From contig JAQGDQ010000040.1 in assembly GCA_030141605.1 (NCBI GenBank), positions 682,001 through 746,000 on the forward strand: 64,000 bases of DNA, read 5' to 3'. Shown piece after piece: positions 11,291 to 64,000 of this stretch. This DNA is from Tubiluchus corallicola. Lineage: Eukaryota; Animalia; Priapulida. A model generated the notes under the pieces. It worked only from the letters and a program-made list of their open reading frames with translations. It was not told where the DNA came from and made no database searches. Position numbers and translations under genes: made by a program. Each line of letters begins with the position of its first letter. The first letter of the stretch is position 1.

Positions 11291-14200
11291 TTAATCATCA
11301 ATATTTACATAAGGCAGTATATGAATATAGTCATTCTGGAGAGTAGGTAAAGAGAGGCAGGATGCCCAATCGTGCCACTCATTTTCATCATCATAGCAAC
11401 CGTTAACACCAGGCCACCTTTCATTACATAGTCTTTCAACCCGGCTTTCTGTGACCGGTTCATGTATTACTTCATATTCCTCTTCTTCTAGTACAACAGT
11501 TGATAAGTCAATAGGCAGGAGAGAAGGGCATTTTTTATCTTCAACTTTTGCCTCTGTTTGAGACTCGACAAGTGGCCTTCCAATAATGCTGTCAAATAGC
11601 ATTTCGTCAGTTGGATTCTCAGACAGATTGCTGGATGAGTGAGAATTGTTGAGATAAAATTTCGGCCTAGATTCCGTTTCTGCTTTAGGCGAGCTTGCAA
11701 CAGGTGAATTGAGTCTTGGCAAGTCAGGACTCGTCACAGTTTGTTCGTGGTATGAGGTGTGTGAGGTACCAGGAAGAGAGCTTTCTAAAAATTTTTCTAC
11801 CATTTCAGCTTTGGTCTGACTCAGGTCTGCACCCATGGAAAGCAATGCAGTACTGTTCTTTCTTGTATACTTCCTTTTCTTCAAAGAGTCTGGAATCACA
11901 GATTTGTGATCCTCCTCATGTGTCAAATCTTTGATTTTATGAGAAGTGATCATACTGATAGTCGGAGAATTTAAGGCTGTTGGCGTTTTTGCTTGCAGTT
12001 CTTCGATTAGTTGGGCAGTCGTTTTCACTTTAGCCAACCTAGGCAGTTTAGTTTGCATATCACTTTTGCTTGGTTTACTCAAATCGACGTCTGTCTGCAA
12101 AAATTCGGAATGATCATTGCTAGCCTTTCCCGTAAATTCGTCTGACCTTGACAAATTTCCCATCATACAATCTACACTGCGAGATTGTTTAAGATCGTTA
12201 TTCACAGTGGACAACACAACACCATTAATAGTGTCTGTTTTTGTATCTAACATTGGTTTTTTGACATTGCCCGTTTCAGGAGAAGTGGTTACAACCTTTC
12301 TTCTCCGTTTTTTATTAGCGGCATTTGTTACACTTAAGTCTTGACTGATGCCCTTGTTATTAGCATTAGTGATTAACAAATTTTTACTGTCAACAGGAAA
12401 ATCGACTGCACTGGATGACAGGCCAGCAGTACTTTGTGAATGTGATACTGACTTAGGCACTGCAGGACTAGTAAGCCTGCTGCATGATGTACTTCCAGCG
12501 GTCCTAGAGAGCTGAGAGGGTGGGTTTGAATAACTCACATTTTCTGCAGGACTAACAGGCACAGAACTAAAGCTTGGTGCTACCTTTTCACCATTAACAC
12601 CAGCTGCTTGTAAATGTTGTGAAGATGGCAGTAATTTTTGCCAACTTTTAACCAGTTTTTTAGCACGCTTTGCAAGTTCATCATTGTTGGTCTTTTTTCG
12701 CAATTCATTGACGAGTTTCCCAAGACGTGTTCGCTACAAGCGTAGAAAGAAAAATTAGTTACAAAAATTAAATAAACGTACTTGACATAATCATAGAAAT
12801 ATGGGAAAGTTTAACAATTTTCATAATAATAATAATAATAACAATAATAATGATAATAATAATTTTGCTTAGTAAGGTGCCAAAGCAGATAGGTAGGTAT
12901 AATTGACAGCATTTTTGTGAAGGATATATGACAATGAAGGCTTGAAATTTTATTAACATAGGCCTAACGAAGCCACTGCGACAGCTTCTTTAATTTGTTC
13001 AGGATGGAGCCCTACATGCAAGCAGAAAAGGCACAATCTAGTACTACTCAAGAAAGCCAATAAAAAACTAAGCAAGAAGCAGAAAATCTCTAAATTAATA
13101 AACAATTACTATCCCTAATCCTGTTTAACTAAAAGTATCTTGAAATTTTAAATGTGCCTCTTTTTACCTCCAAGTCTTCTCTAGTGAATGTGGTACGTTC
13201 CAGAATAGAGATAGCTTCGATGCATCCTGCCATATCCACAACCTAATACATTGATAAAAGAAAGCAGTTTTAAATGGCACTAATTAAGAAAATCATAATC
13301 TAATCTTGCACTAGAAGCCCTCTAGAAAAACAAATCAAAGTTCAAGTGGTTAGGTCAGATGAAAAGCAAAGTAAACATGTGCAATTAAGTAGTTATAAGT
13401 AAGCAAATTTTCAATAGAAAAAAATTTAAAGAAAATCAATGTCTAATTAAAGTCAAAGTACCAAGTCATTTTATTCATCATTTTTGCCGATGAAGTGCCC
13501 AAATGTACATTAAGTTTCAGGTTTTTAAATCAATTTTACTGCTATTGCTGCAACAGTAAGTAGCTTAAGATGCCTAAAATTTGATAATGTGATAACTTGC
13601 AAACTTCTTGTATCTTAGTTAATAAGAAGGACTTGATGCTGAGATCTGTTAGGAATTCACTGTGAATATAAATACCAGGTTGCTTAGCCCACCTCTGTTT
13701 ACCCTCTCTTTCTTTACCACCACTTTCAATTTCCTTTTCTTGCTCACTTTCTAGTCTTATTTATTCATTCTCTCCTTTGCTTTCTCCAAAACAACACGTC
13801 TCTAAACAATTAGCTTTGTTACAAATGTTCAACTAACAAGTGCCACCTCCTGTTTAGTGAGTGGATTTCTGCGTACATGCAAAAATTGAATGCACAGGTT
13901 TAGTTACACAAATTCCTAAATTCAAAAAATGAAATAAACAAACTAAGCACATAAATATGCCCCATAATTTTTAGATACAGATACGGTATTAAAAATTTCA
14001 AAAAATCTGGGAGTTAGGCCTTCTATGAAATTTAACAATGATAGTTGCATACACTAGTGAATGTTCTTTCCAATGATATATAGCACCATGCATTTCACAG
14101 TCCCGTTTTTCAAATCTCACTTTTAGGTGTTGAAACAACAATGCAAGCAAGTAATGGAAATCCCATTCTGGATGTAATAAAAATAGAAAGCTCTAGAGTG

Positions 14201-15737: not shown

Positions 15738-18700
15738 GGAGCTGTACAAAAACTCTCAAAACTAGCAGAGACAACAGTTACCTCCAGCTAGCTTGCAATC
15801 ACACCGACATCCGCTAGTTGGCATAAAGTAGAAGTTGAAAATTGAAAAAGTATATAGCGAACGCCGTGCGGTTGCGGCCGCGATAGCTCCAGCCATAGTT
15901 CCAAAATCTGTAAAGAAGAAAAACGCTTCATTAAGGACCAACGGACCATTATAAGTTATAGTCAAGTCGGTAAACACTACAATATGAAGCTTACAGGTAT
16001 TAACAGTATTACTATAGAAAAAAGTCGCTACTAGCACTGCTATAAAGATAATTTGTATTAAAAGCGAAAGATTAGAGCTTTAAAAAGTCTTTCTTTGACA
16101 AATTAACAACAATAATACTTTTATAGCTCATGAGTCGTACCAAACGTATAATATTAACGGGTGCATGCCTTATAAAAGTTGATAATCATGCCGTTAAACA
16201 TGTAAACGAAGTGAAATTCGTAAGTGTTATCTGTGACAACTTAATCATGGCATAACGTGGGGCACAAAGAAAGGTAATCACTACGATTATAATATGATGA
16301 ATAAGATCATCCGGTAAACATTTTACTGTATAAATGCTGTTTGGTAAGCGCTAGGTTGGCAGGTTATTGCGTTTCGTATTTAGTGCTAGCAATTTTGTTG
16401 GCATTGTTTTATTGCTGCCTTTGTCCCGGGTATCTTTCCTTCATTGAATTTTAAAACATTCACCTACATCTTAAGTTATGTTATGCCACTGAGATGCTCT
16501 TGTGTAATGTTGTTGCTCTCGATGTTGCCTAATTTCATGCGAGCCTTTATCAGAAGTTTATACCTTTGAAAATGATGTGCAGCACAGTCAGCACGTCACT
16601 CTTTTGAAAACTTAAAAATTAATTCTGGCAATAGGTAGAACTCGGCAACCACAGCCACTGCTAGAGGAAGTGGGCTAAAATCTGCAGAACTTGTTCTAAA
16701 TTGCTCTTAATGCCACAGTGAGCGTCCTATAATATGGCCATACTGGGTGATGATGTTCTGCGATAACACTAGGTCAATCCTGTAAAATCTGCTGTGGTGT
16801 AGGTATCGTCGTCCAGAAATAAGAAAACATCGAAGCCTCACTTTCCTGAGGCTACAGAAGAGAGGGAGCACCCGATTCTGGCACAGGTTATTCAAGAAAA
16901 ATTCGTGCTGCACCCGTGACATTGACATGTTATTTAATTAAGATTAAATATATTAGCGTGTTTTCTCTCTCTGCTTAAAAACCTTGACAAATACATACTT
17001 GATTTTTGGCCCGAAAAAATAACAGTTGCTAAACGCTTGTGTATAGACTTCTGTGCAATACAATTTGACTGAATGATGCATAGCAATGTGTCGTTTTGAA
17101 AAAAGGTATAACAGTAAAATATACTTTAAACGTTTATTGATACAGAAGTTTCCACAAAACGAAGCATTTCCGGCTAGAAAATCTCCTAATGGACTGCGAT
17201 GGGCAAACAAATCATTCTGAATATGGGTAGCTGGAATCATTGGTCCCATAATGCGGTTGATGAAATCTTGTCCAATGATGACATCAATTCTTCTCTGGGT
17301 GTTTCTTCGTGGTGGCAAGTTCAATAGTCGTAGCTGCCGAACTTTTTCCCAAGCTTGTGCGTTTAGTCGAATTGGCTTTACTTGGAATGGAGGCGCTAGC
17401 TTTGGAATTGCATAAGCTTGAATTTGTAGACTAAAATCTTTAGACCCCTTTAGAATGAACTTCACTTTACTCGACTGTACTGACTCTATTACATCTGTGT
17501 TAAAGCGTGATATTTCTAGCTTGTATCTTTCCATGCGTAATAGATTAAGTCTAAAAGCTGCTCTGTCGCTGATACTTGAATGTTTGGCTCCACCATCAAC
17601 GTAGACAAAAACTTCACGAGCCTCTTAAGTTTGCGGATTCACTGCTGTGCATGGAAACGCTGGCATCACAATGCCTTCCTCTGCTGGATAGGTGACGTGG
17701 AAATCACGCTGCTTAACTATGATTTCAGTGACGCTTGGTTCTGTCTGTACAGATAAATGTTGGGGAGATAATATCTCTCGTTTCTCGCAAAGCGCTGAGT
17801 TGTGACTGGTACTTTTGCAGTGGAAACATGGCTTCTGTCTGTTGCAGTCTTTCATTAAGAGCCGGGTACTCAAACATTTGTAGCATCTTTTAGCATTGGC
17901 TATCATTTCCTTGTTTTTTTTGGATCTACCACCTTCTTGCATTCGTCACTGTAGTGATTGTCTTTTCCACAAAAGGCGCATCTCAGTTTATTTCTCGTAA
18001 ATGTTCTGAATAAGATTTGCAGTAGGGATAGCTTTTTCTGTTCCAGAACCCTGGTTCCGCAGCTGTGTTTTCTTAACTTGTCCTTCATTGGTTCGATGCA
18101 AATTTACTTCTTGGTAGTCTTGCAAAAATGAAATTAATTCTTCCATTTTTACTGCATCTCTCTTTTTGCCTTGATACAGCCGAAATCTATTCATTTCTTA
18201 CGTCAGATATTTAGGTAGTTTTTCTACTAACTCCCTCACGTGACTGTCGAGGGCTTGATTTGTTGTCTTGACGTTTGAGCGATATAGTAACTGAGCGTAT
18301 TTCATCGGTAATTTGTTCAAGGTTACTCAGGTTTTCTTTCACGTGTGGAACTGCTTTCAGGGACTCCCAATGAGCTTTCTCTTGAAAACCGGGATTGCCG
18401 TAAAAATTCTTCAAAATAGTGACTGCTTCACTGTACTTGTCGCCTTCCATTCCCAACCCTTTAATTTTGTCATACGCTGGTCCTTCTAAAACTCGATGTA
18501 GATCGTCTAATTTCTGTTTGTTGCTGAGTTGTCTGCTGTCACGGTTGATTTTGAATGACTCCCAGAAATTGTTCCATTGTAATGCGTTGCCGTTAAATTT
18601 TGCTAGTTCGATCTTTGGGAGCCTCGCGGTTGTAAAATTCATAGTAGAATCTGATGACATATGCGGTGGCGGACTGATCACGGGTTGCTTTTTTACCGTT

Positions 18701-19411
18701 TTCACCGACTCCAGGATTAACTCTGGCCTCTTCTTTGCGTTATTTTCGTTCGCGTTCGCGTTCTCGTTCTTCTTGAAGCGTTTGGAACATCTGTTGTTGC
18801 GATTGTAGAAACATTTGCATCATTGCAAGTGTAGCGTCTTGTTGTGACAGCGATCCGCCCTGCGCTGGTTGATTTACCCGTGACGTAGTTTTATTCAGCA
18901 ATACTTGATCCCTGGATGTAGTATTTTGCTGTGTTGGCAGCGAAGTGGCTTCCGTCTGATTTTCGTCAGACATTTCGACCTTATCAGTTGGTCTCGTAGC
19001 TTGAATTACATTGATGACGTTACCATTGCAACCGAATTCGGACAACTGCTTTGTAGTAAACGTTCCCGATTTCACCAGCTGAATTAGTAAATTATTGTCG
19101 CAACATTTCAAGCATGCCCATTGAAATTCGCCCAGCTTACTTAATGCCTCATAAAGTTTCTCTGTTAGTACATGATCTTGCTTTAGGTTTAAACAGTTTA
19201 TACACCACCAACGTTCACAGCTGTCACATATCAACCCACTTGCAACACTTTGATGACAATTTATGCATTTGTTATCTTTAGCCATAATTAGTCATTACGA
19301 AAATGTTCGAAAATTATTTACCGGTAGACAGACGTCCTAGCGAGTAGACGATCGCTCTTTCTTGGTAAACGTAGACTGCATACAAGTATCGTCGCCCACT
19401 GATTAGCAGAA

Positions 19412-35200: not shown

Positions 35201-38200
35201 ATTAAGAATATTCAGGACGCGTCCCGCATTTTCTTCGCAGTGTAAACGGGGCTTAAAGAAGTTCTCCTGAATGTTAAAAAAACTAGATGTGTTCCTAAGT
35301 TAATTTTTCGGCTAAAGTTTACAGTTTCCCATACTCTAGAAATTAGTTCGCGAAGCGGATTAGGATTAGGATTAGGGTTAGGGTTAAAGTTGGCTTAGGG
35401 TTAAAGTTGGCTTAGAGAAAGGGTTAGGGTTGGGACTAGTGTTAGGGTTGTTGTATTTAAATTGTGTGAGAAACGCCTTCGAATTTTTCAGAAAGCAATA
35501 GGTTAATGTATTTTTTTAGAATCTGCACTTTCAAATTCATCGGCGAAACACATTTGCATCGTATTATTCTGATGAATTAAACTCCGAATGCTTGTCAATA
35601 CAGTACAGTACAGTACAGTACAGTACAGTACAGTACAGTACAGTACAGTACAGTACAGTACGATACGATACGATACGATACGATACGATACGATACGATA
35701 CGATACGATACGATACGATACAATACAATACAATACAATTATGTTAATAACTCACTTTCCCTGATTCATGCCTTTGAAGCCGTCATAGATCAAGTCAAAT
35801 GTTGGTCTGGACTCCGGCATTTCCATCCAACATTGCTTCATGATGTGAATGGCTTCGGGCGGCGCTGACTGTGGCGACACCGAGGGACGTATAAGCGGGG
35901 GTGGTTTCTTTATCTTCCTTATTATTTCTACATAGTTGGTACAGATGAAAAATATTAGTCACAACACCACAACTATTAAAAACGCATCAGTCTGTATTTT
36001 CGTTTTGTTTTTTGGAAATTAACAGGTTCAATGGCCTTTGAAGTAAGTATTCACTGCAGGTAGTCAAGAGAAGCTGTATGGCACGGTTGACTGAACTGTG
36101 CCTGATTAGGCCATTAATCACAGGTAAAAGCTTTTCTAAGTCTTAAGCATAAAAGAGTACTTTGCCGCCTTAATCTTCGCGTTGAACGCAGCGCGAAGGT
36201 TCATAAATTTAACGAATCTGATTGTTTTATTTTATTAAAGACGATTAAATACAAATATATCAACATAGCAATATGCCAGAAAATGTTAATTAAAATTTGC
36301 TAAATATACTGCTGTAACATTAGATAAACGTTCAAGCGAGATTTGAAAATGTTAATCCGAGTTATTTTACAACTGAGTACGTTGAATGCTAAAACGTGGA
36401 AAAATAGAAATATCGACAAAATCAAAATAATATAACATAACATAATAAATCACGCAGTTACTGCTTTGGTAGCCTGTTATTTGAGTTGATTTCTGTATAC
36501 TACTTGTGTATATCTGTAAATGTTGATTACCAGTCGCATAAATTTTATATCCGCCATAGAGGTCACGCTCAAATTCTGTACAACTTGCTTTTTACGTTTT
36601 ACATTTTTTAGCATAATGATTCAGTGAGAAGGTTTTCCTCTTACCAAAATCAATGACGTAGCTGCAGGTTGAATCATCTCTTTAGTCTTTCGCGTTTTCA
36701 GAGAAAATGGGAAAAATTTTATAAAAAATCACGTCGCTACCTACAGAATCTGGGGAAAGCACAAATGCTAACAAATCTAATTGCAAAACTTGTCTTAACG
36801 CGCTCTTTCTATGCATAGGCCTACTCCTCAAAATAATAAGTATATTTCGCGTCAATGGTTGCATGCATCAGTATCACAAATTTCCAGCAGCCGATTAAAA
36901 GTGACACCACTCCAGACACTCTCGACCTGGCGGAAAAAGAAATGCTAGCGCAATTAGAATTACATGAATACTTTTTGTGAATGTACTGGTTTCCTCCTCG
37001 TACTCAGCACACAGCTAATTATGGTTTACAAGACAAGTACTAAATGCTGGATATATGCTTCCATTCATTGCTTAGACTGGATGAAGTAACTGATCGGCTT
37101 ATTGATCAAATTTTTCATCCTATGTTATTTGACACATGCAGTGTGGTGTTTCAGGAGTCAACAGTTCTTTTCTGTTTTTTAAAACTAAAATGTTCGTATG
37201 TTGCCACTTGCAGCTGCTCATAAATGCTAAACTTGGATGGGTCATTTCTGGTAACTTTGTTTCAGGGGAAGGTCAATGCAAAATTTAAAATGGTTTTCTT
37301 TTCAAAGTAGGCCTAGTTATATGAACTTATTTATGAACTGCATTAATTAACTAACAGTTCAGCATAAAAACATGGAATTGAATAAATTTTAAAAATGTAT
37401 AACTGTGTTCACATATAGTTTTTAAAGCAACTTAAGAACAATTCAAGTTTTGAAGTGCAATTCTCATTTACCATGCTGTGCGATAACTACACAAATAACA
37501 TTCATTTGCTACATCTCAAACGTTCGTCTCGGGTATATGACGCTTATTTTGGTAACTTTTGGCTTTAATTACCTTCTGCTGTTAGATTTATGTTGCAAAA
37601 TGGTGGCCGCCTCAGCATAACTTCCTGACAAATAATTGCAAAGGAGTAGACGTCGCCCATTTGGGTTCCTTTCTTCATCACTATAGTGTCCCTGAGTAAT
37701 TCTGGAGCTGTCCACAACAAATCTGAAAAGCAACAAATAATATAGTGACTTTGGATGTACCTTCGATCCCAAAAGCAGGGAAATAGCAAAAAAAAATTTA
37801 AAACCTGTTGCCCGTATTTTGTATTGCCAGTAAGTTTTGGAGTTATCAGGGTCAAGAGTACCTCAAATTTAATATTAAAGGTTATTTAGCCAACATACAA
37901 ACATTCAAACAGATACATATCTGAGCATTTCTTAATTATAGTCACATATACTAAAGCTGTGGGTTAGGGACCCTCGAAATGGCAATACGGCTGCCTAAGT
38001 TAAAGGGCACCTCGAGAAGGAATAGAAAAAGAGAAAGAAAGCGATGGGTGAAAAAGAGAAAAGGGAAGAAAGGCACAGAATACCAGAGAAGTTCAGTGTC
38101 GATGTAAACTTGTGATGTAAACATTGTGACTTAACAAGTCTTGTCAGAAATAGACTGGTTCACTTCCCCTATTTCTGATACCTGCATTATTTGTTGAATA

Positions 38201-41200
38201 TGTCTGACAAACCGAAGAGTATCGATGAGCTGTGTGCATGTGACCGTAAGAAGCTGAAAGCCATTACGAAGGACGATATGATAGAAATCATACTGGCTGC
38301 CCCCCCTTCGGCCGCTTCTGGTGGTGCCGATTCAGCTGTGTTGAAACGCCTGGATGAACTATCTAATAATATTAACACTAAATTTCAAAATCTGGAGGAA
38401 AAATTGTCCCAAAAGATTGAAGACAAACATTCTGAATTAAAGACTGAAGTGAATGTCTTGCGTCAAGTTGTTAAAAATCAACAACGGTTTTTGGAGCAGG
38501 TTGACGGTCGTCTCCGAAACCAGAACTTAATTATGATGGGCTTAAGTGAAAATGAGGATATCGATGGTGCTAATTCCGACGATGATAAGATAAGGAAAAT
38601 TCTTGATGTAGTGGATGTGGAAGCTGCTGTCGTCTCATACAAGAGACTCGGTACAGCTACGAATGGCCGTGATCGTCCTGTGTTGGTCATTGTTGAAAAT
38701 CATGACCAAAGGGACAATGTCGTGAAGAATGCTAATAAGCTTCAATCGTCTGCCAATGCTGCTGTGAAAAAAGTCAGAGTGAAGCGAGACACCCACCCTG
38801 CAGTTCGTGCCGAATGGAAGCGGCTATTTGACGCTGAGAAGTGCGAACGTGACAAACCTGAAAACCGGGGATGCCATATTGAGTTTGACAAGAAAAAGCG
38901 TGAGATCACCCGGGACGGTGTTGTTATTGATAGTTGGCAACCAATGTCTTTTTTGTAAACAATCGAGATAGTTGCACTGAACTCCGTATTACACATTGGA
39001 ACATTAATGCCGTGAAAAATAAACTGGAGATCGACTTTGTTCGCCAAAGTTTATGTAAATCTGATATGATATTCTTAAATGAAATCAAAACTCCGTTGAA
39101 GTTCACAATGCCTGGGTATAAAACTCTCCGAACTAATCAAGCAGCTGGTCACCGTGGTGGTTGTGCTATACTGATTTCAAATGTGCTAGCCTCTTCGATT
39201 CAATCGGTCGAATTTGGTTCCGATGTTATTGTGCTACGCCTCAATAATATACCTGGTATTGTTTTTGTATGTGTTTATCTCACGCCATCTGACTCTCATT
39301 ACCACTCACTTGAATGCTTAGCAAAAATCAACGAAGTTATGATGTCCAACCCTCATGATCAATTTGTGATACTTGGTGATTTGAATGCCCGTTACGGGCC
39401 TGCTATTAACAAATTTTTACGTAATGTTAGTGACAGTGGTGCACGATATCTTGCTTCCGAGGATTCGATTGGATCCCCGAATGAAAATGCCAAAGTTGTT
39501 TATAATTCTTTTAACTCTTTAATCGTTGTAAATAACATTCAGTATAAAGGCAGAACATTTAAAAGTAATCTGACGTATAGAAAACGTGAGAATTGGATTT
39601 CTGAATTAGACTATTGTCTTATTTCTCCTGCACTAATCGATAGTGTTGTCAATTTCACTGTCAATCAAGACTTACGATTACCTTCGAATCATGCCCCTCT
39701 GTCTGTGATTTTTGATATCAACATGTTATCTCGTGGAGCCTTACCTCACAATCTTCTTATCAGATCCGAAGCCTTAGGTGCTCATGCAGCTGAAGTTAAA
39801 ACTCCAAACCGCAAACATTGTAGCCGTCAGATCCGTATTGCTGAAACAGACTGTGTCGAATTTCAGAGAGTGATGTCTTCAGTTGAACCTCCTGATGATG
39901 TGGATGATGTAAATAGTTGTGTTACTGATATTAATAATGTTTTCCGTGATAAACTGATTAGATGTAAAGCTCCGAATCGTCTCATCAATCGTTATCAGCC
40001 GACGGATCGTTGGCGCCGTATGCTCGAGCTCAATGATTCTAAGGAAATATGGAATGCCATAGACTGGAAAGGAAACACGATTGAATCTGAATCCTTTGAA
40101 TCTCCAACTAGCGAAGAATTCAAACGTCATTTCGAGGATCTTCTCAACCCAGATCGTGATGGTCCAGAGGACTTATTATCACTGTGCGATGGTCCAAGTA
40201 TCCCTATCACAGATGATCCGATCGCTTTCGATGAGTTTGTTTCTGCTGCTTCCGAATGTAAATCAAGTAGTAGTGGTGGACCCTCTGGTAGTCCTGGTGC
40301 TGTGTTCAATTTTATCCCAGATAATTGGATTAATTACCTGTGTTTTGTTCTGAATTTCATATTCTTTTCGCGATCTTTCCCGATTCCGTGGTGCTTTAGC
40401 CGCCTTGTTACTATTTTTAAGAGAGGATCTCGTAAGGACTGCGATAATTACCGCGGTTTGTCAATCATGGATTCCCTTGCGAAAATATACGATCGAATTT
40501 TGTGCAAACGTTTAGAGATGTGGTTCAAACCCGATAGGGAGCAGGCTGGCGCCCAAAAGGGTAGATCCTGCATTGAGTGGATTGTGACTCTAAGACTATT
40601 AATGGACTATGCACTGTTTAAAAAGAGGAAATTATATATCGTTTTCGTAGACTTCTCGAAAGCTTACGATAGAGTTCCACGTTCTGGTTTGATTAGGGCC
40701 TTGAGAGCTCTTGGCTGTGGTCTTGCGATGCTTTCTGCTCTTGCTGCCATGTATGTGAATACGCAGCTGGTCCTTGGTGCTGCCGTTATTGGTGTTACAT
40801 TAGGTGTGAAGCAGGGTTCTCCGTCATCCTGTTTCCTCTTCACACTGTATATTAACCCTCTTATTCGTGAATTAAAGTCTAGATGTGGTCTCGATGGTTT
40901 CCTAGGAAATTTACACTGTTTGATGTTGATGGATGATACAATCTTATTGTCAACATCTAGAGAAGGTATTATTCAAAAACTCAGTATCCTTATTGAGTTC
41001 TGTGATCAATCCGGTATGAAGGTGAACTTAAAAAAGACTAAATTTATGGTTATTAATGGCGATGCTGTTGATCGTCTGGACCTCGTAGTGAACCCCCTTA
41101 CTGTTAATCACTGTGACTATAACGTTTACCTCGGTGCTGTCTTTAGCTCAACAGGAAAATTTAAACCCGCTCTGGAAAAACACTGCGAAGACAAATATTG

Positions 41201-44200
41201 TCACGTACTGAAGTTCGTGTCATTTATTTCTAAGAATTCAGCTTATCCTTTTGCAGTTAAGAAGTTGGTTTTAAATGCCGCGCTACTTGCTGCAATTACT
41301 TACGGATGTGAGTCTTGGCTATTCAATGACCTTAATCCTATTCAAGGGATGTATATTAGTGTTATTAAATGTTTACTCGGTGTGCGACGTACAACTGCTA
41401 ATGATTTGTGTCTCATAGAGTTGGGCCTTCCCTCCCTGAATGGTTTTGTGAAGGACACCCAATCTCGCTTTTTCAATAAGATTGTTCGCTCAAGAGTGAA
41501 TATTCCTGATGATCCGTTTATGATTGTTTACAATTTGTGTCGCGAGTCAAACACCCCATGTGCTCGATATTTGCGTAATATAACTGGATACCGTGGTGAT
41601 TTTATCGATGATGACCTGAATAGAATCAAAGATAGGACCCGCGCTTCTGACCGTACGAAATTTGTCACATACTTACAACTAAACCCTGAACTCTCTATCC
41701 ATCGAATTTACTGTGACAATGTTAATGAACTGAAACGGATAAAAACGTCAAGGCTCAGACTTTCCTCACACAACCTTGCCATAGAAACCGGTCGTTGGTC
41801 CCGTATTGAAAGAGAGCGAAGACTCTGTTCATGTGGACAAATCCAAACAGAACTGCACGTAATATGTGAATGCCCTGAAACACGTATCTTAAGAAACAAT
41901 TCCGATTTAATATTTGATGATTTAGTGACTTTTTTCAGCGGAAATCCCGCTGATATTTGTAATTTTGTACACGATGCTCTAGCCATTTTTGGTCTCTAAT
42001 TGTTACTACACCATACATTGAGTGATCTATGGACTATGATCAGCCTAAATTTCTTAAATGTTGCAACTATCTCGAAACGATTCTTATGACTTTTTGTATA
42101 TATCTTTGACCATGGTCAATAAATAAATAATAATAATAAAAACCGATGCTGCGTCAATAACAATGACGACAACAATAATAATAATAATAATAACAGCAAC
42201 GACAACGGCGGCGGCGACGACGACGACGACAACAACAACAACAACAACAATAATAATATCTATTTCTATTTTTATTGTCGTCTTGTCACCATTATCATTA
42301 TACATGTATTGCTAAATAATGATAATTGTAACTATAAGTTGGAGCACAACACTGTTATGATGATAAGAATAAATGAATTAAGAAATGTCCAGTGATAAAA
42401 AATACATTTAAAGACAATAACTTGTTCACATACATACACATTACCTTTAGGTGTTACGGTTTTATGAACTTGTCGACCTTCGTACATCATAGGTAAACCG
42501 TAGTCCGTTATTTTGAGGACCCATCGGCTATCAATCAAACAGTTTTTGGAGGTGAGGTGACCATGCACACGAATTGGACTAGAGTGTAAATATCGCATAC
42601 CCTATTAGAAAAAACCGTAAAATTTATCTACACAGTGGCACATTATAGCTGCAATAACATCAAGCTTAGATATTCTACTTGTTCTATTAACAATTACTCT
42701 TGTTTTATTAACAATTTTATTTATCACAAACTTACTGTTTTTAATTGTTTGATTGCTTCAAAGTCGCATTTTTTCACACGTTCTGCGTGTTGTGCTACAT
42801 ATTCAACTTTTTCATACCCCTATATTCCGCTGGTAGTCTAGTTTTTGAATACGTTTGAGTTTTTTATGCACACGTGCCTGCATGTGGCAGTCTCTAACTA
42901 GACATTTTTCTCTCAGCTCGTTTTTATGATTCTGTGGCAAATATACATCAACAATTGCAATATACATGCTGTCATGATCATCAATTCTCATCTTTTAGAA
43001 ATGTCTTATTTTGTTCTAACAATATAAAATCAGACCCGAAAACTCATTAGTTATCGAAAATGAGTTACCCTTGCGGTTCGTTTGAGAAATTGAGAGACAA
43101 TACAAACGTAACATTTTCTTGAATAATTTGTGTTTTAGATAATTTGCTTCGTTAAAATGCGGAAGAACTCAAACTTGCAATTCCTCAAGGTTCTGAAAAC
43201 ATAATTCTTACATCTTACTTAGTTACATTATTACTCAAATTGTTCTGTATCGTAACTGCTTTTAAATAATCACAGAATCAAGTTTTTATTACTCACCCGT
43301 ACAAGGTCTGTCAAAAACGAGAGCTTGAAGGACCACTCCAGCTTTATGTTTTCGTTTTTGTACAACTCCTTAAAATTAAAATAGCGTTGTTAAAGGACGG
43401 GTTCAGTTAGTTTTCAGTTTTACAAAAGATAAAATAAGAAAATCTGCAAGTATAACTATGTACTCAATACCTAACATAAATGATGAACGAATCCGCGTGC
43501 ACCAGCATGCTTATCACTTGAGTATGCCAGGTCCGCTGCGGTTTAATTATGTGAGACTGACCAATGTGCAACGCGCTCGAGGCAAATTATCTCATGTGTG
43601 ACCGAGCAGTCTGATCTTCGCATCTTAGCCCCTGTCTCGATCCCTTAAACAACCTCAGTTTTTTAACCGGAACATTCTCTGAGCCTTTGTTTTAGGTGTC
43701 TAGCCTGCGTGACTTTACGTACTATAGTTTTCGAGTTATTTTTTTAACTTATTCGATTTTTATTTAGACGTAACTTAGATTTAGTTTGGTTTGCATGGTT
43801 TATTAAACGCAAGGATTTTCCACTCCAGAGATTGATGGTTGGCACAGCACCAGTTTTACTGCAGTGCTTGCCCGGTTTGGAAAATCAACTTGAAGGGAGC
43901 GTGATTGAAATCAGTTACTCACTTATGGTTTTTCAAGCTTATTGGAGGAACCGAGTTACCTCAAGTTAATTTAGTGACTGATTTCCTATAAATTCGTTTC
44001 TGACTTGCTCTGGCATTAAAGGCCATAATCCTGCTACATAGAACCTTAACAAAAAATACTAATCCTTGCTTTACGTTACACACACGCCTGCCATAGGCAC
44101 ATACATTTTTTTATTAAATTAACAAGTTACAAGTAGTGTAATTTTATTTGAAGCAAACAAATTTCCACGATAATAGGGTAGTACGTAGCTAGTGTTAGAG

Positions 44201-59200: not shown

Positions 59201-62200
59201 CTTTTTTATTTGCTTCCTGATCCAGTACTCGGGTTCTAGATAACTTAGACAACGTCACTTGCGCTGTGGACACTGAGTTGTAGGAAATTTGAGTAGTAGG
59301 CATATGGGCAATGGACACTGGACAGTTGCACTTTAGCAGAAGGACAAACTAAAGTAACCGTCTGTCGAAATACACGTGCGTCTGTTGTCACTGTTGCGGC
59401 TGTAATTGCTGTTGTTGTTGCTGCTGCTGTTGCTGCTGCTGCTGCTACTGCTGCTGCTGCAGCTACCTCCTACAGCCCCTGCTGCTCCTAACATAATGTT
59501 AAGGCTGAACATTGTTAGACCGATAGAGCTGTAGATAGCCTGAAAGCGAGTTTTAGATAGACGTAAAAACAGATAAGCAAACAGATATAAATATTTGCAT
59601 CCAGGAATATGCATTACACATGACTAATGAACGTATTTACGCCCTTTGGCGTCGAGGTTCACGCATTGAACAATTTCAGATTTTTAATAACTAATCTATA
59701 AGTTTGGCTTCTTTGCATGCACTTTGTGTATTTATGGCATTGTTTGCCCTTTGTTTATTGCATTGTGTTGTGTGAACACTGCACTCTTGTGAAATTGCAT
59801 GATTAGGGTTTTCGGCAAAAATATTAGTTTAGCGTTCCGGGCTGAATTGGTGTTCTGAAAGGGGAATCGGGGGCGGAGGTGAAGGATGCGAACGGAAGCC
59901 ACAGAGATTTAGACAAAGTCGAGGAAGAGAAATAGATCAGAAAGAGAAAATACGGAAAGTCATTTTTGAAGTCATATGAAAGACTGTCCACGGATTATAG
60001 AAACCAAACGGGCGGTAAATTATTAACATGGATTCAATTGTGAAAGATATTTCATCATGGATGGCAGCCAATAATTAGCCATCGTGTTAGAATATGCACA
60101 GAGTGATTTCCGCTTGACAGTTAAACACAAAATCTGCTAATCATATAATGGCATAAAGTACATAAATAATAGCGCACCTTCACTTGCTGTTATGCACGGC
60201 ATTGTTTCGTTCATTATACAGTCCGGATCCGGTTCTATAAATCTATTGGACGGCCATAGTGGTAGATTTACTGACAAATCACCTGATTGATTAATTGTAA
60301 TAACTGTGCGAAACCATTCCAGTGATTCATCGTAGCTTAAAAGGACGTGATCATATTCTACGTTGCCGTATCCATCTGTTTTTTCCGTCGTCAGGAACCC
60401 CTCGAAAGTCAAATTTCGGGTATTCTGGGCCACAGAAACTGGATCAACAGCGTTAAGGTAGCTGCCCTCCTCGGTCAGTGTTTTGTTCAAAGCGTAGGCT
60501 AACAACATGATAGCGTTGTAAAGCGGACTGATGAAAATGTTATCCTGAAAGAGAAAGAAACACGATTTTCTAGGAAAATAAAAACTCAACTTTGTACTGC
60601 ATGCCGTCATGGTAAAATTCGCACAAATGAAGGAAGGCGCATTCATTGCTAAAAAGAATGCTCACTAATACAGAAATATTGCATGTACACTTCTGCATTA
60701 AATATATATCACATAAACTGTATGCTTTTTACAAAATAGCACGATTCGATTCGATAAAATAAAAAACGAGAAATATTAACTGATGCTACTGCTATTAATG
60801 TTGATTAAAATAAGTAACAATGCTGTTTAAGCTATAGAGCCAGTTTGTGTACAAGCTCCTCTGTTTTCTTTTCTCTTTTATTTTTGATGTCTCCTGTCTA
60901 CCACATTCCACCGCATAGCTTTTTAAATGTCTATTACAGTTTGTTTAGTTTTTGTGTGGGCAGATCTGCACAAAGACGGATTTACAGCTGGTGTATGGTC
61001 TGTTTTATCTCTGACAGAATTAGGAAAATTTGTAAATCAACGAGTAAAATGTTGAGAACGACAGGACATCTAAAACGTAAAAATAAAGATAAATTTTTCG
61101 TGCTAACAAAGACAGATCGACAGAAGCACGGATTTGTTTTAAATCATACCATTTTCTCTTTTTAAGTCGCTTATTTTTGACGAAAAGGGAGGCTTAACTG
61201 GCCCCAAATTTCTTTCGCCTCAAAGTTTTGCCAATTTCTGTATTTTTGATGCATTTTGTTATAAGAATTTAAATTTTGCGGCAAGTTTTGTTCTTATTTA
61301 TGACGTGTTTAAATGTGCTAAAAAGATAACCTTACCCCATTTTTAAAGTTGTCGGTCTCATTGAAAGGCAGATTTGATATTTTTTCAATGTATTGTTTAT
61401 TGAGCATTTCATAAGGACCACTGGCTTCAGCTGGTATCACGGTCAAAACAAACAACATTACACTTGAACTTGCGTCGATAATCAACTGAGCTTCCCTGTA
61501 AATAATAAGAGGGTAATCAAAGGTGATACAAACCCACAAAATTGAATTTTCATGATAAATTTGAAAGACAACAAATAGGAAAAAAAATCCCAGAATACAA
61601 CCTGGATTTGAACCAGATACCTTTTGCTAACAAGCAGACGCCGTAGAAGACCGCTAGGCCACAGTCCAAAGTTAACTCCTGGTCAACCAAATCCAACATT
61701 TCCAATGTCAAATCGCTTACGTTTGAATGATTCTAACTAATTATAACATTACGAATTATTTTATTTTTTTGTTACTTTTCGGTAGGTAATTAATTATTTT
61801 GCTAGGGAGATTATTAATACTTAAGATTCAATTGAGCACAGACACGAACAATTATTGATGCAAACAGTAATGCATGCAACAGTAAAAATTATCTTTATCT
61901 TAAATGTGCGTTAACAAAATTATTAAAATCAGTGGGGAAATGTTACGAAAACATAGTTGCACTAGGTCTAAATGTCAATATGACGATTTGTATGAGAGTT
62001 AATGTGTAATCTACAACTAAGGCAGGCCTAGGAGAAATAGATTAATTACAGTGCTCTTTATAGCTGTGTACAACAGGGTTTTGGTGAAAAGATAAGGTGT
62101 AACTAAAAACTTATATCAGCGCTGAAAATACGTATTATATAAGACACTTTCATTTTTTTGAATAGTAAGAGTGTGCCTGGTATTTTCTTAACGTTTATTT

Positions 62201-64000
62201 TCTCAAGTTATTTTAAAATTATTCTATTATGTAAACTAATAAAGGCAGACGAGTTAAATGGTCGTGCGCAAGGTGTTTGATCTTTTACTGAAAAACAAAA
62301 CTTGCCGCGGTTCAAAAAAAATCTGCAGGTCTTTGTTTTTTATCTGGGCAGTCTTACCTATGCGACTCCCACGTTACCTAACAGGCATTAAACGACTGCA
62401 GAGGAAATACGTGATTCGCGTTTGTTGAAGTAACTGCTCATGTAATTACAAATCTAACCGTAAATTATGGCCACGTAACTGCATTAGTTAGAGAAGATAT
62501 TTAACTGCGCGGTTCGATCAAAGTACAGTAAATAATTATCGTAGGTGTAATAGACAGAAATTACGAAACACTACAAACGATTTTGTGACATCACCGGTTA
62601 AATTGCAAAATAATTAATCTGCAAATTAACCTTTTGTAAAATAAATAAGCTGACAGTTACAAAACTTAAACACCACTTTTTTGTGCGACGTGTAAAATCC
62701 TATTTTCAAGATGCTTACTTATTTATATACTTATTTAATTGCATATCCATCTCTCCATCTATCTGTCTATCCATCCATCTACCACCTACCTATTTATCTA
62801 TATACATATATATATATATATCTGTCTGTCTGTCTGTCTGACTGTCCGTCCGTCCGTCCGTCCGTCCGTCCGTCCGTCCGTCCGTCCGTCCGTCCATCCG
62901 TTCATCCACCCACCCACCCATCCATCCATCCATCCATCCATCCATCCATCCATCCATCCATCCATCCATCCATCCATCCATCCATCCATCCATCCATCCA
63001 TCCATCCATCCATCCATCCATCCATCCATCCATCCATCCATCCATCCATCCATCCATCCATCCATCTATCCATTCATTCATCTGTCCATTAATCTATCTA
63101 TCCATCTATTTGCCCATTTGTTTACTTATATATTTATTTGTTTATTTGCTTATTTATTTATTTATTTATTTCTTCTGGCTTAAAATGACTAAAGGACTAA
63201 AGTGATCTGCAAATAAGGGATACCATAAGTCCAGGCTGAGTACTCTGATTTGTGTAAAGTGTAGCATTTTGCCAAATGAGCTTACAGCAAATGTATTCAG
63301 GAAACCTTACAAAATGCGATTTGCATTAAGTCGCCAAAATGTAAAACTGGCTCCGCATTACAGCTATGTCGTATTTCGGCTTGTCCTTCGTCTAGTCATA
63401 AAGTGGTTCGATCAAACACCTTGCGTACAACCATTTAAATGCGTCTACCTCTATTAGTTACTATAGTACAATAATTTTAAAATAATGCACATCCATTTTC
63501 ACATTTTGGTCAGTTATAAACAGTCTTCCGGTTTGAAATTAACCGTTTTACTACTATATTAGGGTACAATTGCAATACATCAAGTGAACTGCACAAGTTG
63601 TCTTAAATCAAAAGTTATCCGAAGGCAAGTTGTTGTTTAGTGACTTCATCTTGAGTTAGCAGAAAATTCAAGACGCCACGACTTTTTACGTATTTTGAAA
63701 CTAAAGGGTCTCCAATCCTAAACCTAATCATTTCCTCTAATCAACTAGGCGAGATCAGAACGCACACCAAAACTGCCACTTCTAACAACAAATATAAATG
63801 TTCGTTTTTTGAAACCATAAAAGCGGTTGCTTAAAATGACCATAGTTTAAACGTCTTTATTGTATTTAGTCCACAGATTTATATGATTTAGTCTTACCTG
63901 GATGGATTGGAACTGAGTTTTGGCACACGTGTGTAGTAAGAAGAGATTGTTTCAATTAAGAAAAAAGCAACTCGGTCGTGTGTTAGTCCCGCTGTTTTAG
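29267..64000 (-). CDS. Receptor (single-pass) guanylyl cyclase, retinal-GC/NPR-like architecture; 5' end lies beyond the window
   Basis: Phase-consistent GT-AG exons 5'->3': 64000-63898 (partial), 61495-61336, 60544-60178 (ANF-receptor-like ectodomain), 53647-53563 (TM: [22 protein letters not shown]), 51587-51476, 50231-50085, 48546-48469, 46543-46439, 43368-43297, 42601-42445 ([23 protein letters not shown]), 37722-37573 (LLWTAPE), 35927-35756, 34467-34327 (hinge), 33780-33588 ([12 protein letters not shown]), 32923-32749 ([13 protein letters not shown]), 32420-32322 ([19 protein letters not shown]), 32097-32006, 31300-31218 (GKG...TFWL), 29633-29267. The GTP-specifying Glu and Cys are present. 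Confidence 0.95.
33155..33296. repeat. Foldback element with tRNA B-box-like arms
   Basis: Imperfect inverted arms of about 60 bp (caaacttgaaaaacgggg...ctggatttcagtcagggac and gtccctggttcaaatctag...cccgtctttcaagtttg) around a spacer of about 20 bp. The right arm contains GGTTCAAATC. Confidence 0.7.
35357..35450 (+). repeat. Degenerate (TTAGGG)-like interstitial repeat
   Basis: ggattaggattaggattagggttagggttaaagttggcttagggtt...; probably internal to a repeat element. Confidence 0.7.
35597..35738. repeat. Compound pentanucleotide microsatellite (CAGTA)n(CGATA)n(CAATA)n
   Basis: Direct reading; begins within about 20 nt of a cyclase splice donor. Confidence 0.95.
38200..38958 (+). CDS. LINE ORF1 protein (coiled coil, RRM-like and C-terminal domains), 252 aa from the first ATG
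   Basis: Heptad-rich segment ([22 protein letters not shown]...), followed by [17 protein letters not shown]....RPVLV and ..D..PAVR motifs typical of L1/CR1-type ORF1p. Confidence 0.85.
   Translation: MSDKPKSIDELCACDRKKLKAITKDDMIEIILAAPPSAASGGADSAVLKRLDELSNNINTKFQNLEEKLSQKIEDKHSELKTEVNVLRQVVKNQQRFLEQVDGRLRNQNLIMMGLSENEDIDGANSDDDKIRKILDVVDVEAAVVSYKRLGTATNGRDRPVLVIVENHDQRDNVVKNANKLQSSANAAVKKVRVKRDTHPAVRAEWKRLFDAEKCERDKPENRGCHIEFDKKKREITRDGVVIDSWQPMSFL
38934..41999 (+). CDS. LINE ORF2: AP-like endonuclease, reverse transcriptase and C-terminal Cys/His motif; no AUG before endonuclease motif I
   Basis: EN motifs HWNINA, FLNE, LGDLNAR, ELDY, SNH. RT motifs [34 protein letters not shown]-terminal [10 protein letters not shown]...RLCSC.....ELHVICEC. 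The first in-frame ATG is at 39066. Confidence 0.93.
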   Translation: MATNVFFVNNRDSCTELRITHWNINAVKNKLEIDFVRQSLCKSDMIFLNEIKTPLKFTMPGYKTLRTNQAAGHRGGCAILISNVLASSIQSVEFGSDVIVLRLNNIPGIVFVCVYLTPSDSHYHSLECLAKINEVMMSNPHDQFVILGDLNARYGPAINKFLRNVSDSGARYLASEDSIGSPNENAKVVYNSFNSLIVVNNIQYKGRTFKSNLTYRKRENWISELDYCLISPALIDSVVNFTVNQDLRLPSNHAPLSVIFDINMLSRGALPHNLLIRSEALGAHAAEVKTPNRKHCSRQIRIAETDCVEFQRVMSSVEPPDDVDDVNSCVTDINNVFRDKLIRCKAPNRLINRYQPTDRWRRMLELNDSKEIWNAIDWKGNTIESESFESPTSEEFKRHFEDLLNPDRDGPEDLLSLCDGPSIPITDDPIAFDEFVSAASECKSSSSGGPSGSPGAVFNFIPDNWINYLCFVLNFIFFSRSFPIPWCFSRLVTIFKRGSRKDCDNYRGLSIMDSLAKIYDRILCKRLEMWFKPDREQAGAQKGRSCIEWIVTLRLLMDYALFKKRKLYIVFVDFSKAYDRVPRSGLIRALRALGCGLAMLSALAAMYVNTQLVLGAAVIGVTLGVKQGSPSSCFLFTLYINPLIRELKSRCGLDGFLGNLHCLMLMDDTILLSTSREGIIQKLSILIEFCDQSGMKVNLKKTKFMVINGDAVDRLDLVVNPLTVNHCDYNVYLGAVFSSTGKFKPALEKHCEDKYCHVLKFVSFISKNSAYPFAVKKLVLNAALLAAITYGCESWLFNDLNPIQGMYISVIKCLLGVRRTTANDLCLIELGLPSLNGFVKDTQSRFFNKIVRSRVNIPDDPFMIVYNLCRESNTPCARYLRNITGYRGDFIDDDLNRIKDRTRASDRTKFVTYLQLNPELSIHRIYCDNVNELKRIKTSRLRLSSHNLAIETGRWSRIERERRLCSCGQIQTELHVICECPETRILRNNSDLIFDDLVTFFSGNPADICNFVHDALAIFGL
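42155..42256. repeat. Compound trinucleotide microsatellite (AAT/AAC/GAC/GGC)
   Basis: Direct reading, just downstream of the LINE tail. Confidence 0.85.
45600..45990. repeat. Two diverged direct copies of a tRNA-B-box-containing repeat
   Basis: attgcggg(g)taatga.tt.aaa...gctgaaaaat....ttgaacc occurs at ~45615-45690 and ~45908-45985. Confidence 0.6.
47860..48035. repeat. Degenerate foldback with a tRNA-like arm
   Basis: aaaaagaaggaaatgtgaaaacagtcg... pairs with ...cgacttgttcacatcctcttttt; the internal ctggatttgatccacagacc resembles a reverse B-box. Confidence 0.5.
52355..53032. mobile_element. MITE-like element with long degenerate inverted arms
   Basis: Matching inverted blocks: aagcaaaaatt/aatttttgctt, acacaagaaaa/ttttcttgtgt, ttttatgtttta/taaaacataaaa, tatttccataa/ttatggaaata. 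Confidence 0.6.
58228..58412. repeat. Degenerate (GAT)n repeat
   Basis: Direct reading; explains the poly-Asp/Met ORF. Confidence 0.85.
59390..59465. repeat. (CTG/TTG)n microsatellite
   Basis: Direct reading. Confidence 0.85.
61575..61742 (-). repeat. tRNA-derived SINE-like repeat copy
   Basis: Minus strand ctgtggcctagcggtc...gcgtctgcttgttagcaaaaggtatctggttcaaatccagg contains A-box-like and B-box-like motifs; related to 7090-7265. Confidence 0.6.
62745..63170. repeat. Compound tetranucleotide microsatellite (CTAT/CTGT/CCGT/CCAC/CCAT/TTAT)
   Basis: Direct reading; explains the HPSI and MDGW repeat ORFs. Confidence 0.95.

Follow-up and report, generated by a model that had tools for sequence, protein, structure and literature searches.

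How the ORF2 protein of a LINE comes to be translated is an open question, and the available portions of the reviews give only re-initiation, in L1 and SART1, as a studied route. The window considered herein, by which we mean the whole 64,000-nt stretch of DNA that was analyzed, contains a LINE that poses this question directly. The initial annotation held that its ORF2 has no usable AUG, that ORF2 overlaps ORF1 in the -1 frame at a slippery heptamer, and that the product is an ORF1-ORF2 fusion of about 1,270 aa.

The element and its surroundings

The features of the window are collected in Table 1. The element is an APE-type non-LTR retrotransposon, with an APE endonuclease followed by a reverse transcriptase (RT), a simple-repeat tail at the 3′ end, multiple copies, and no terminal repeat or LTR around it in a self-BLAST of the window. 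The same self-BLAST returned neither a second copy of the LINE within the 64,000 nt nor a clear target-site duplication around it. The Pfam matches of ORF2 are RVT_1 (7.6e-31) and Exo_endo_phos (1.7e-7), and its top PDB match is human L1 ORF2p (E 9e-35). Contigs break at 38108, where depth climbs from tens to thousands (run X3), and depth increases toward the 3′ end of the LINE in all four runs. At 38087-38091 some contigs diverge from the window and run into AAAACCGATGC, which in the window comes after the LINE tail; the LINE appears to be inserted in another, lower-copy repeat. It lies antisense between two exons that, from their motifs, look like the kinase-homology and ANF-receptor parts of a receptor guanylyl cyclase, which indicates an animal host. 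Farther away in the window, two of the BEL/Pao-type frames (18211-18819 and 18740-19291) overlap, and that element looks decayed.

Table 1. Features of the window, with positions numbered from its first nucleotide
Feature	Positions	Strand	Basis or remark
Coding exon of Mediator subunit 26	11291-12733	-	Pfam Med26 and Med26_C
BEL/Pao-type LTR element fragments, several frames	16953-19291	-	DUF1759; weak protease and DUF1758 matches
Two exons flanking the LINE	37565-37885 and 60137-60661	-	Weak Pfam matches, kinase and ANF-receptor
Lower-copy repeat apparently holding the LINE	37882-38108 and 42138 onward		
Young multi-copy LINE, full-length (about 4.0 kb, with approximate ends)	38109-42140	+	Contig breaks at 38108; AAT-rich tail
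5′ UTR, about 90 nt, including start-stop ATG TAA at 38115-38120	38109-38199	+	Sequence; 5′ end inferred from contigs
ORF1, 252 aa, ATG at 38200; predicted coiled coil, RRM and CTD, L1 ORF1p-like, type II	38200-38958	+	Profile, AlphaFold2, Foldseek
ORF2 frame, 1,021 codons stop-to-stop: APE endonuclease, RT, C-terminal Cys/His motif	38934-41999	+	Pfam
U_UUU, the U_UUY core kept across the family; its Phe codon (38950-38952) could re-pair at -1	38949-38952	+	Six of six DNAs and protein tails
U_UUU_UUG_UAA, tandem-type heptamer and ORF1 stop, sub-lineage of the window	38949-38958	+	Sequence; (S/N)-F-L-stop in six of six clade proteins
First ATG of the ORF2 frame, codon 45, 3′ of endonuclease motif I	39066-39068	+	Sequence
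RT catalytic motif, LMDD	near 40925-40937		
AAT-rich 3′ tail	42118-42137	+	Sequence
ORF with PT repeat	62696-63205	+	Pfam PF04886

The RT catalytic motif is also LMDD in all six ORF2 homologues, in place of the YADD or FADD of the reference rows in the available part of a published alignment (PMC10294476), and by eye the RT motifs of the window look closer to the RTEX rows of that alignment than to its Proto2 or CR1/L2 rows. ORF1 itself has no significant Pfam match, and only one of the 150 members of its family matches Transposase_22. The top PDB match of the ORF1 family profile (150 sequences) is human L1 ORF1p (E 2.7e-4), the AlphaFold2 model of ORF1 has a pLDDT of 93.7 with 2ykp as its top Foldseek match (E 4e-5), and a search of the ESM Atlas returned eukaryotic clusters only. 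By these models ORF1 is predicted to be of type II (L1-like), with a coiled coil, a single RRM and a CTD, as this type is defined in the available portion of PMC4120745.

A fixed junction without a usable AUG

The coordinates initially given for the junction, namely those of the TAG, the ORF1 stop, the heptamer and the first ORF2 ATG, are all correct. The TAG at 38931-38933 lies directly 5′ of the open ORF2 frame, ORF1 ends ATG TCT TTT TTG TAA with its stop at 38956-38958, and the two overlap by 25 nt with ORF2 in the -1 frame relative to ORF1. U_UUU_UUG (38949-38955) is indeed phased as X_XXY_YYZ in the ORF1 frame, and the claim that ORF2 has no usable AUG also holds, as the first ATG of its frame comes after the H-W-N motif at codons 21-23. 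The first codon of the ORF2 frame is a near-cognate TTG at 38934, which derives from a Trp codon of ORF1. Over 250 codon positions scanned in ORF1, the terminal site is the sole strict heptamer and also the sole U_UUY, and ORF2 contains four strict heptamers in 1,010 positions. Hence the heptamer alone is not rare, and it is its position that matters.

The initial annotation allowed that other copies might carry an in-frame AUG or a single fused ORF, and this was not found: deep contigs are unchanged, and all five related loci described below are split and have no AUG between the ORF1 stop and motif I. In assembled contigs, a view that hides rare variants, gives no copy number, and may include the window's own source among the best-matching runs, the junction is identical at depths of 41 (X1), 95 (X2), and 1749 (X3), where X1 comes from one study and X2 and X3 from a second (X2-X4 being a single sample). 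An extra base that fuses the ORF1 and ORF2 frames is present in none of the contigs examined. The best 150 of 6,232 ORF1 homologues are 143-384 aa in length, and a search for fused ORF1 proteins among 2,920 longer candidates gave no match, which is a weak test. The recoding junction of this intact young LINE is real and extends across the family, and the version in which a single copy carries an indel is largely refuted.

The conserved unit in related loci

A metagenome scan yielded five related loci (L001-L005) among 365 pattern matches, with ORF1 identities to the window of 30-41%, and in all five the endonuclease ORF comes next, in the -1 frame. Their ORF1s end TAT TTC TAA, CTT TTT TAG, CTT TTT TAA, CAT TTT TAA, and TTT TTC TAG, and all five thus have U_UU(U/C) directly before a UAR stop; in the window one Leu codon is added. 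Between the shift site and endonuclease motif I there is no ORF2-frame ATG in any of the six DNAs (the window and its five relatives), the first ATG being at codons 39-143. ORF1-tree distances among the loci are 1.4-4.2, as compared with a random-pair median of 2.6, and hence the loci span the tree; L002, L003, and L004 constitute one sub-clade while the window, L001, and L005 are mutually distant. While the initial annotation looked to conservation of both the heptamer and the -1 phase, only the latter is found in all six DNAs, as the strict tandem heptamer is present in just two of them (the window and L005) and is lacking in L001-L004. Judged from these sequences, it is U_UUY by the stop that is conserved, and not the tandem X_XXY_YYZ heptamer.

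The ORF2 of L005 gives no tblastn alignment with that of the window at E values up to 1, and looks CR1/L2-like from its motifs. This locus (L005:1615-2925) carries the same ORF1 family and a U_UUC_UAG junction on a different ORF2. It appears that ORF1 and the junction are passed as one unit from one ORF2 lineage to another, possibly by a module swap, and ORF1 shuffling is reported in the available portion of PMC4120745. Scans of viral contigs with the ORF1 and ORF2 alignments and a scan of genome contigs for ORF1 returned no relative, and an RT scan of genome contigs returned a single broken fragment (L006) without the junction, which was excluded from all counts. This RT relative (L006:309-1863) occupies one end of a metagenome-assembled contig of bacterial origin, a placement that is likely due to contamination or a mis-join.

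The protein tails of ORF1 can stand in for the RNA motif, although they cannot distinguish U from C. In 150 ORF1 homologues with pairwise identities below 50%, a set of ORF1 proteins alone with the downstream ORF outside the data, Phe is the last residue in 79, among the last two in 129, and among the last three in 139, as compared with a background Phe frequency of 2.5%; the profile used to fetch them ends in F-L, which may inflate these counts. The residues that occur immediately before the last Phe are F, L, N, S, Y, H, P, V, D, G, A, and R. Residues that have no U-ending codon (E, K, Q, M, and W) precede the terminal Phe in none of 103 non-FF cases, as compared with 136/693 before other Phe residues, 28/139 one position further upstream, and 7/36 before FF runs, and the Fisher p-values (1.5e-9 and 5e-5) overstate independence since the proteins are related. 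That FF runs allow these residues upstream is explained because the first Phe can supply the U. In a tree built from 160 ORF1s (149 labelled), no fewer than 69 changes of the residue before Phe are required, and the fact that no non-U residue appears there despite these changes suggests that the U is kept at the RNA level. Following the last Phe is the stop in 79 cases, Q in 15, L in 14, H in five, and others in the remainder, and in the clade of the window all six proteins end (S/N)-F-L-stop. The tails F-Q-stop (15/150) and F-H-stop (5/150) permit no tandem slip and are possibly read-through contexts.

Proposed mechanism

We propose that ribosomes probably undergo programmed -1 frameshifting at the terminal U_UUY of ORF1 and would thereby make an ORF1-ORF2 fusion, for which we compute 1,266 aa (143.5 kDa), near the initial estimate as far as length is concerned. 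Given the conserved -1 phase, the lack of an AUG, and the conserved U_UUY, the simplest account would be that tRNA-Phe re-pairs from UUY to UUU. The peptidyl-tRNA-Phe in the P site would leave UUU or UUC and re-pair with the overlapping UUU during a pause for which the stop codon is probably responsible. In most relatives this stop occupies the A site, and in the lineage of the window it lies one codon later. In that lineage U_UUU_UUG would also permit tandem Phe/Leu slippage, and a G at the last heptamer position is a weak slippage context. The majority of ribosomes would terminate at the UAA to give a 28.6-kDa ORF1p, and the fusion would be a minor product. The Phe is one or two codons before the stop in 60 of 139 cases, which fits elongation slippage better than re-pairing after termination.

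The pause is ascribed to the adjacent stop because no 3′ structure folds better than shuffles, with z scores in pseudoknot-free folds of +0.4 to +0.9 for the window and -1.5 to +1.5 over six loci. By this fold-versus-shuffle test no stimulatory structure was detected where canonical eukaryotic -1 programmed frameshifting has its stem-loop or pseudoknot, at a distance of 5-9 nt on the 3′ side. The conservation of overlap phase and shift site among relatives that is likewise canonical is seen, as the -1 phase and U_UUY, in all six DNAs, and is accompanied by the protein tails. A weak upstream hairpin (z -2.1 in the window) was dropped as it is inconsistent across the loci (z -2.4 to +0.6). Hence the frameshift-fusion reading of the initial annotation is retained in its fixed junction, -1 phase, and absence of an AUG, and is modified in that the heptamer occurs in two of six DNAs and no downstream stimulator was detected. 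A wider picture, which we advance tentatively and would stop somewhat short of favoring, is that of a structure-free "-1 shifty stop" in an old and large animal LINE family, where fusion would occur via tRNA-Phe on U_UUY, the module would travel between ORF2 lineages, and fused ORF2p within ORF1p trimers would secure cis-preference and set the stoichiometry.

Other possible routes to ORF2

The alternative that survives best, unlikely in our view but of appreciable weight, is a termination-coupled restart that would produce free ORF2p. After release of ORF1p at the stop, translation would resume in the -1 frame. This could be the work of an 80S ribosome whose deacylated tRNA-Phe slips onto UUU and which continues without Met, or of a 40S subunit that re-initiates at a non-AUG codon by the stop, much as proposed for L1 and shown for the UAAUG of SART1. 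Stop-start overlaps of the AUGA type give the -1 phase. UAAUG gives it too (SART1; PMC5972666, available portion), and in the available sources both of the bicistronic LINEs that have been studied experimentally, L1 and SART1, use re-initiation. Three of six ORF2 homologues (P0009, P0012, and P0014) have a called start before motif I, at a codon that may be ATG, GTG, or TTG, and two called starts are 13 residues before the Trp, which is the place of the stop-overlapping codon in the window, L002, and L003; these could equally be a TTG that arises from U_UUU_UGA. The remaining three of the six comprise two whose called start lies past motif I and one with a start upstream of an F-F, in agreement with the layout of the window. 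L002 also has an in-frame Met 26 codons 5′ of its Phe, inside ORF1. Re-initiation with Met-tRNAi, however, gives no reason for the conservation of U_UUY. No AUG overlaps or adjoins the ORF1 stop in any of the six DNAs, and the codon that overlaps the stop is near-cognate in just two, being AAC, GAT, ACA, or GGC in the other four. The upstream NUG arises incidentally from a Trp codon, and this Trp varies among the proteins (77 W, 54 F, and 12 Y, with Phe or Tyr thus in 66/143); in L005 the NUG is missing. The 60 of 139 cases where Phe is not the final codon also count against a restart, as do 80S restarts in yeast in vivo, which show no P-site codon preference according to the available portion of PMC5972666.

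We regard as improbable the reading in which the terminal Phe is kept for the ORF1p protein itself, as a binding tail, with ORF2 reached in another way, for example through a spliced RNA (the U-run and a nearby AG acceptor) or internal entry. Terminal aromatic tails are common binding motifs, and an AG is found close 3′ of the U-run in several loci (TTTAG, CTAG, GCAG, and ACAG), but this reading leaves unexplained both the -1 phase in six of six DNAs and the exclusion of non-U codons before Phe when K and Q do occur before FF. The shortest pyrimidine run, in L001, has only four bases, and the pLDDT of 62 for the last two ORF1 residues in the monomer model is neutral on a binding role. Finally, the loss of one nucleotide from the T run of a single fused ORF in this copy, or RNA polymerase slippage that adds a base, is highly improbable. 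It can draw on a run of six T residues (38949-38954) and on one contig of the indel-rich run X4 (depth 9.7) that has one T fewer and an additional A at 38964, but that contig leaves the frames unfused at the run, deep contigs from two studies are unchanged, the split is common to all five relatives, two of which have TTC and no long run, and homologue lengths, with the weak test of longer candidates, point the same way.

If the frameshift fusion is correct, LINEs of this family would act like retroviral Gag-Pol and would offer a naturally occurring eukaryotic example of -1 shifting at a stop codon with no RNA structure involved, while if free ORF2p is made they would provide a natural case of a tRNA-guided 80S restart. 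Either way, annotation of ORF2 from its first ATG gives a truncated nuclease. The four-base motif outlasts dozens of neighboring substitutions.

Comparison with known systems

Statements on published systems in this section refer to the available portions of the sources. A search of the literature outside most subscription papers and Repbase Reports gave no report on the U_UUY motif or on frameshifting in the LINE group of the window. The 2016 frameshifting review (PMC5009743; first 300,000 of 449,034 characters) contains nothing on -1 shifting in animal LINEs with two ORFs and attributes LINE ORF2 to unconventional initiation; it treats an early report on potato virus M with caution and without discussion. 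The term "frameshift" is absent from the available text of PMC11203168, as are "frameshift", "slippery", and "overlap" from that of PMC13343379. Curated bivalve LINE libraries offered 400 characters per sequence, with the junctions outside this view.

The UAAUG of SART1 and the re-initiation of human L1 resemble the window in that the mRNA is bicistronic and translation of ORF2 is coupled to the end of ORF1. The SART1 overlap has the same -1 phase, and the fold predicted for ORF1 in the window is that of L1 ORF1p. In contrast to SART1, none of the six DNAs of the window family has an AUG on the stop; L1 differs in its AUG and in a spacer of 63 nt, and the sources available describe a conserved U_UUY for neither. 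The Paramecium non-LTR groups 1-3 have an ORF2 that was inferred from consensus sequences to need recoding or re-initiation (PMC5405496), but they differ from the window in their +1 frame or read-through and in their ciliate host.

The Dictyostelium elements TRE5-A and TRE3-A are stated to "require a -1 frameshift" in a figure legend and table of PMC5911963. Like the element in the window, they are two-ORF APE-RT-ZF elements, but they are amoebozoan L1-clade elements that target tRNA genes, and the comparison covers the stated -1 shift for ORF2. The available text of PMC2881922 and PMC3159450, which include a later TRE5-A paper, does not contain "frameshift".

The U_UUU_UUA of HIV-1 is, like the site in the window, a U-run heptamer that is read Phe-Leu and whose junction residue is Leu or Phe (PMC5009743), and its Phe-Leu reading matches the F-L-stop tails of the window lineage. 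The window differs from HIV-1 in that the last base is G, the stop follows immediately, no 3′ stem-loop was found, and most relatives are without the tandem heptamer. In antizyme, pheL, and the Listeria phage tsh gene, as in our proposal, a P-site tRNA re-pairs when the A site is occupied by a stop (PMC5009743), although these shift +1 whereas the frame in the window is -1.
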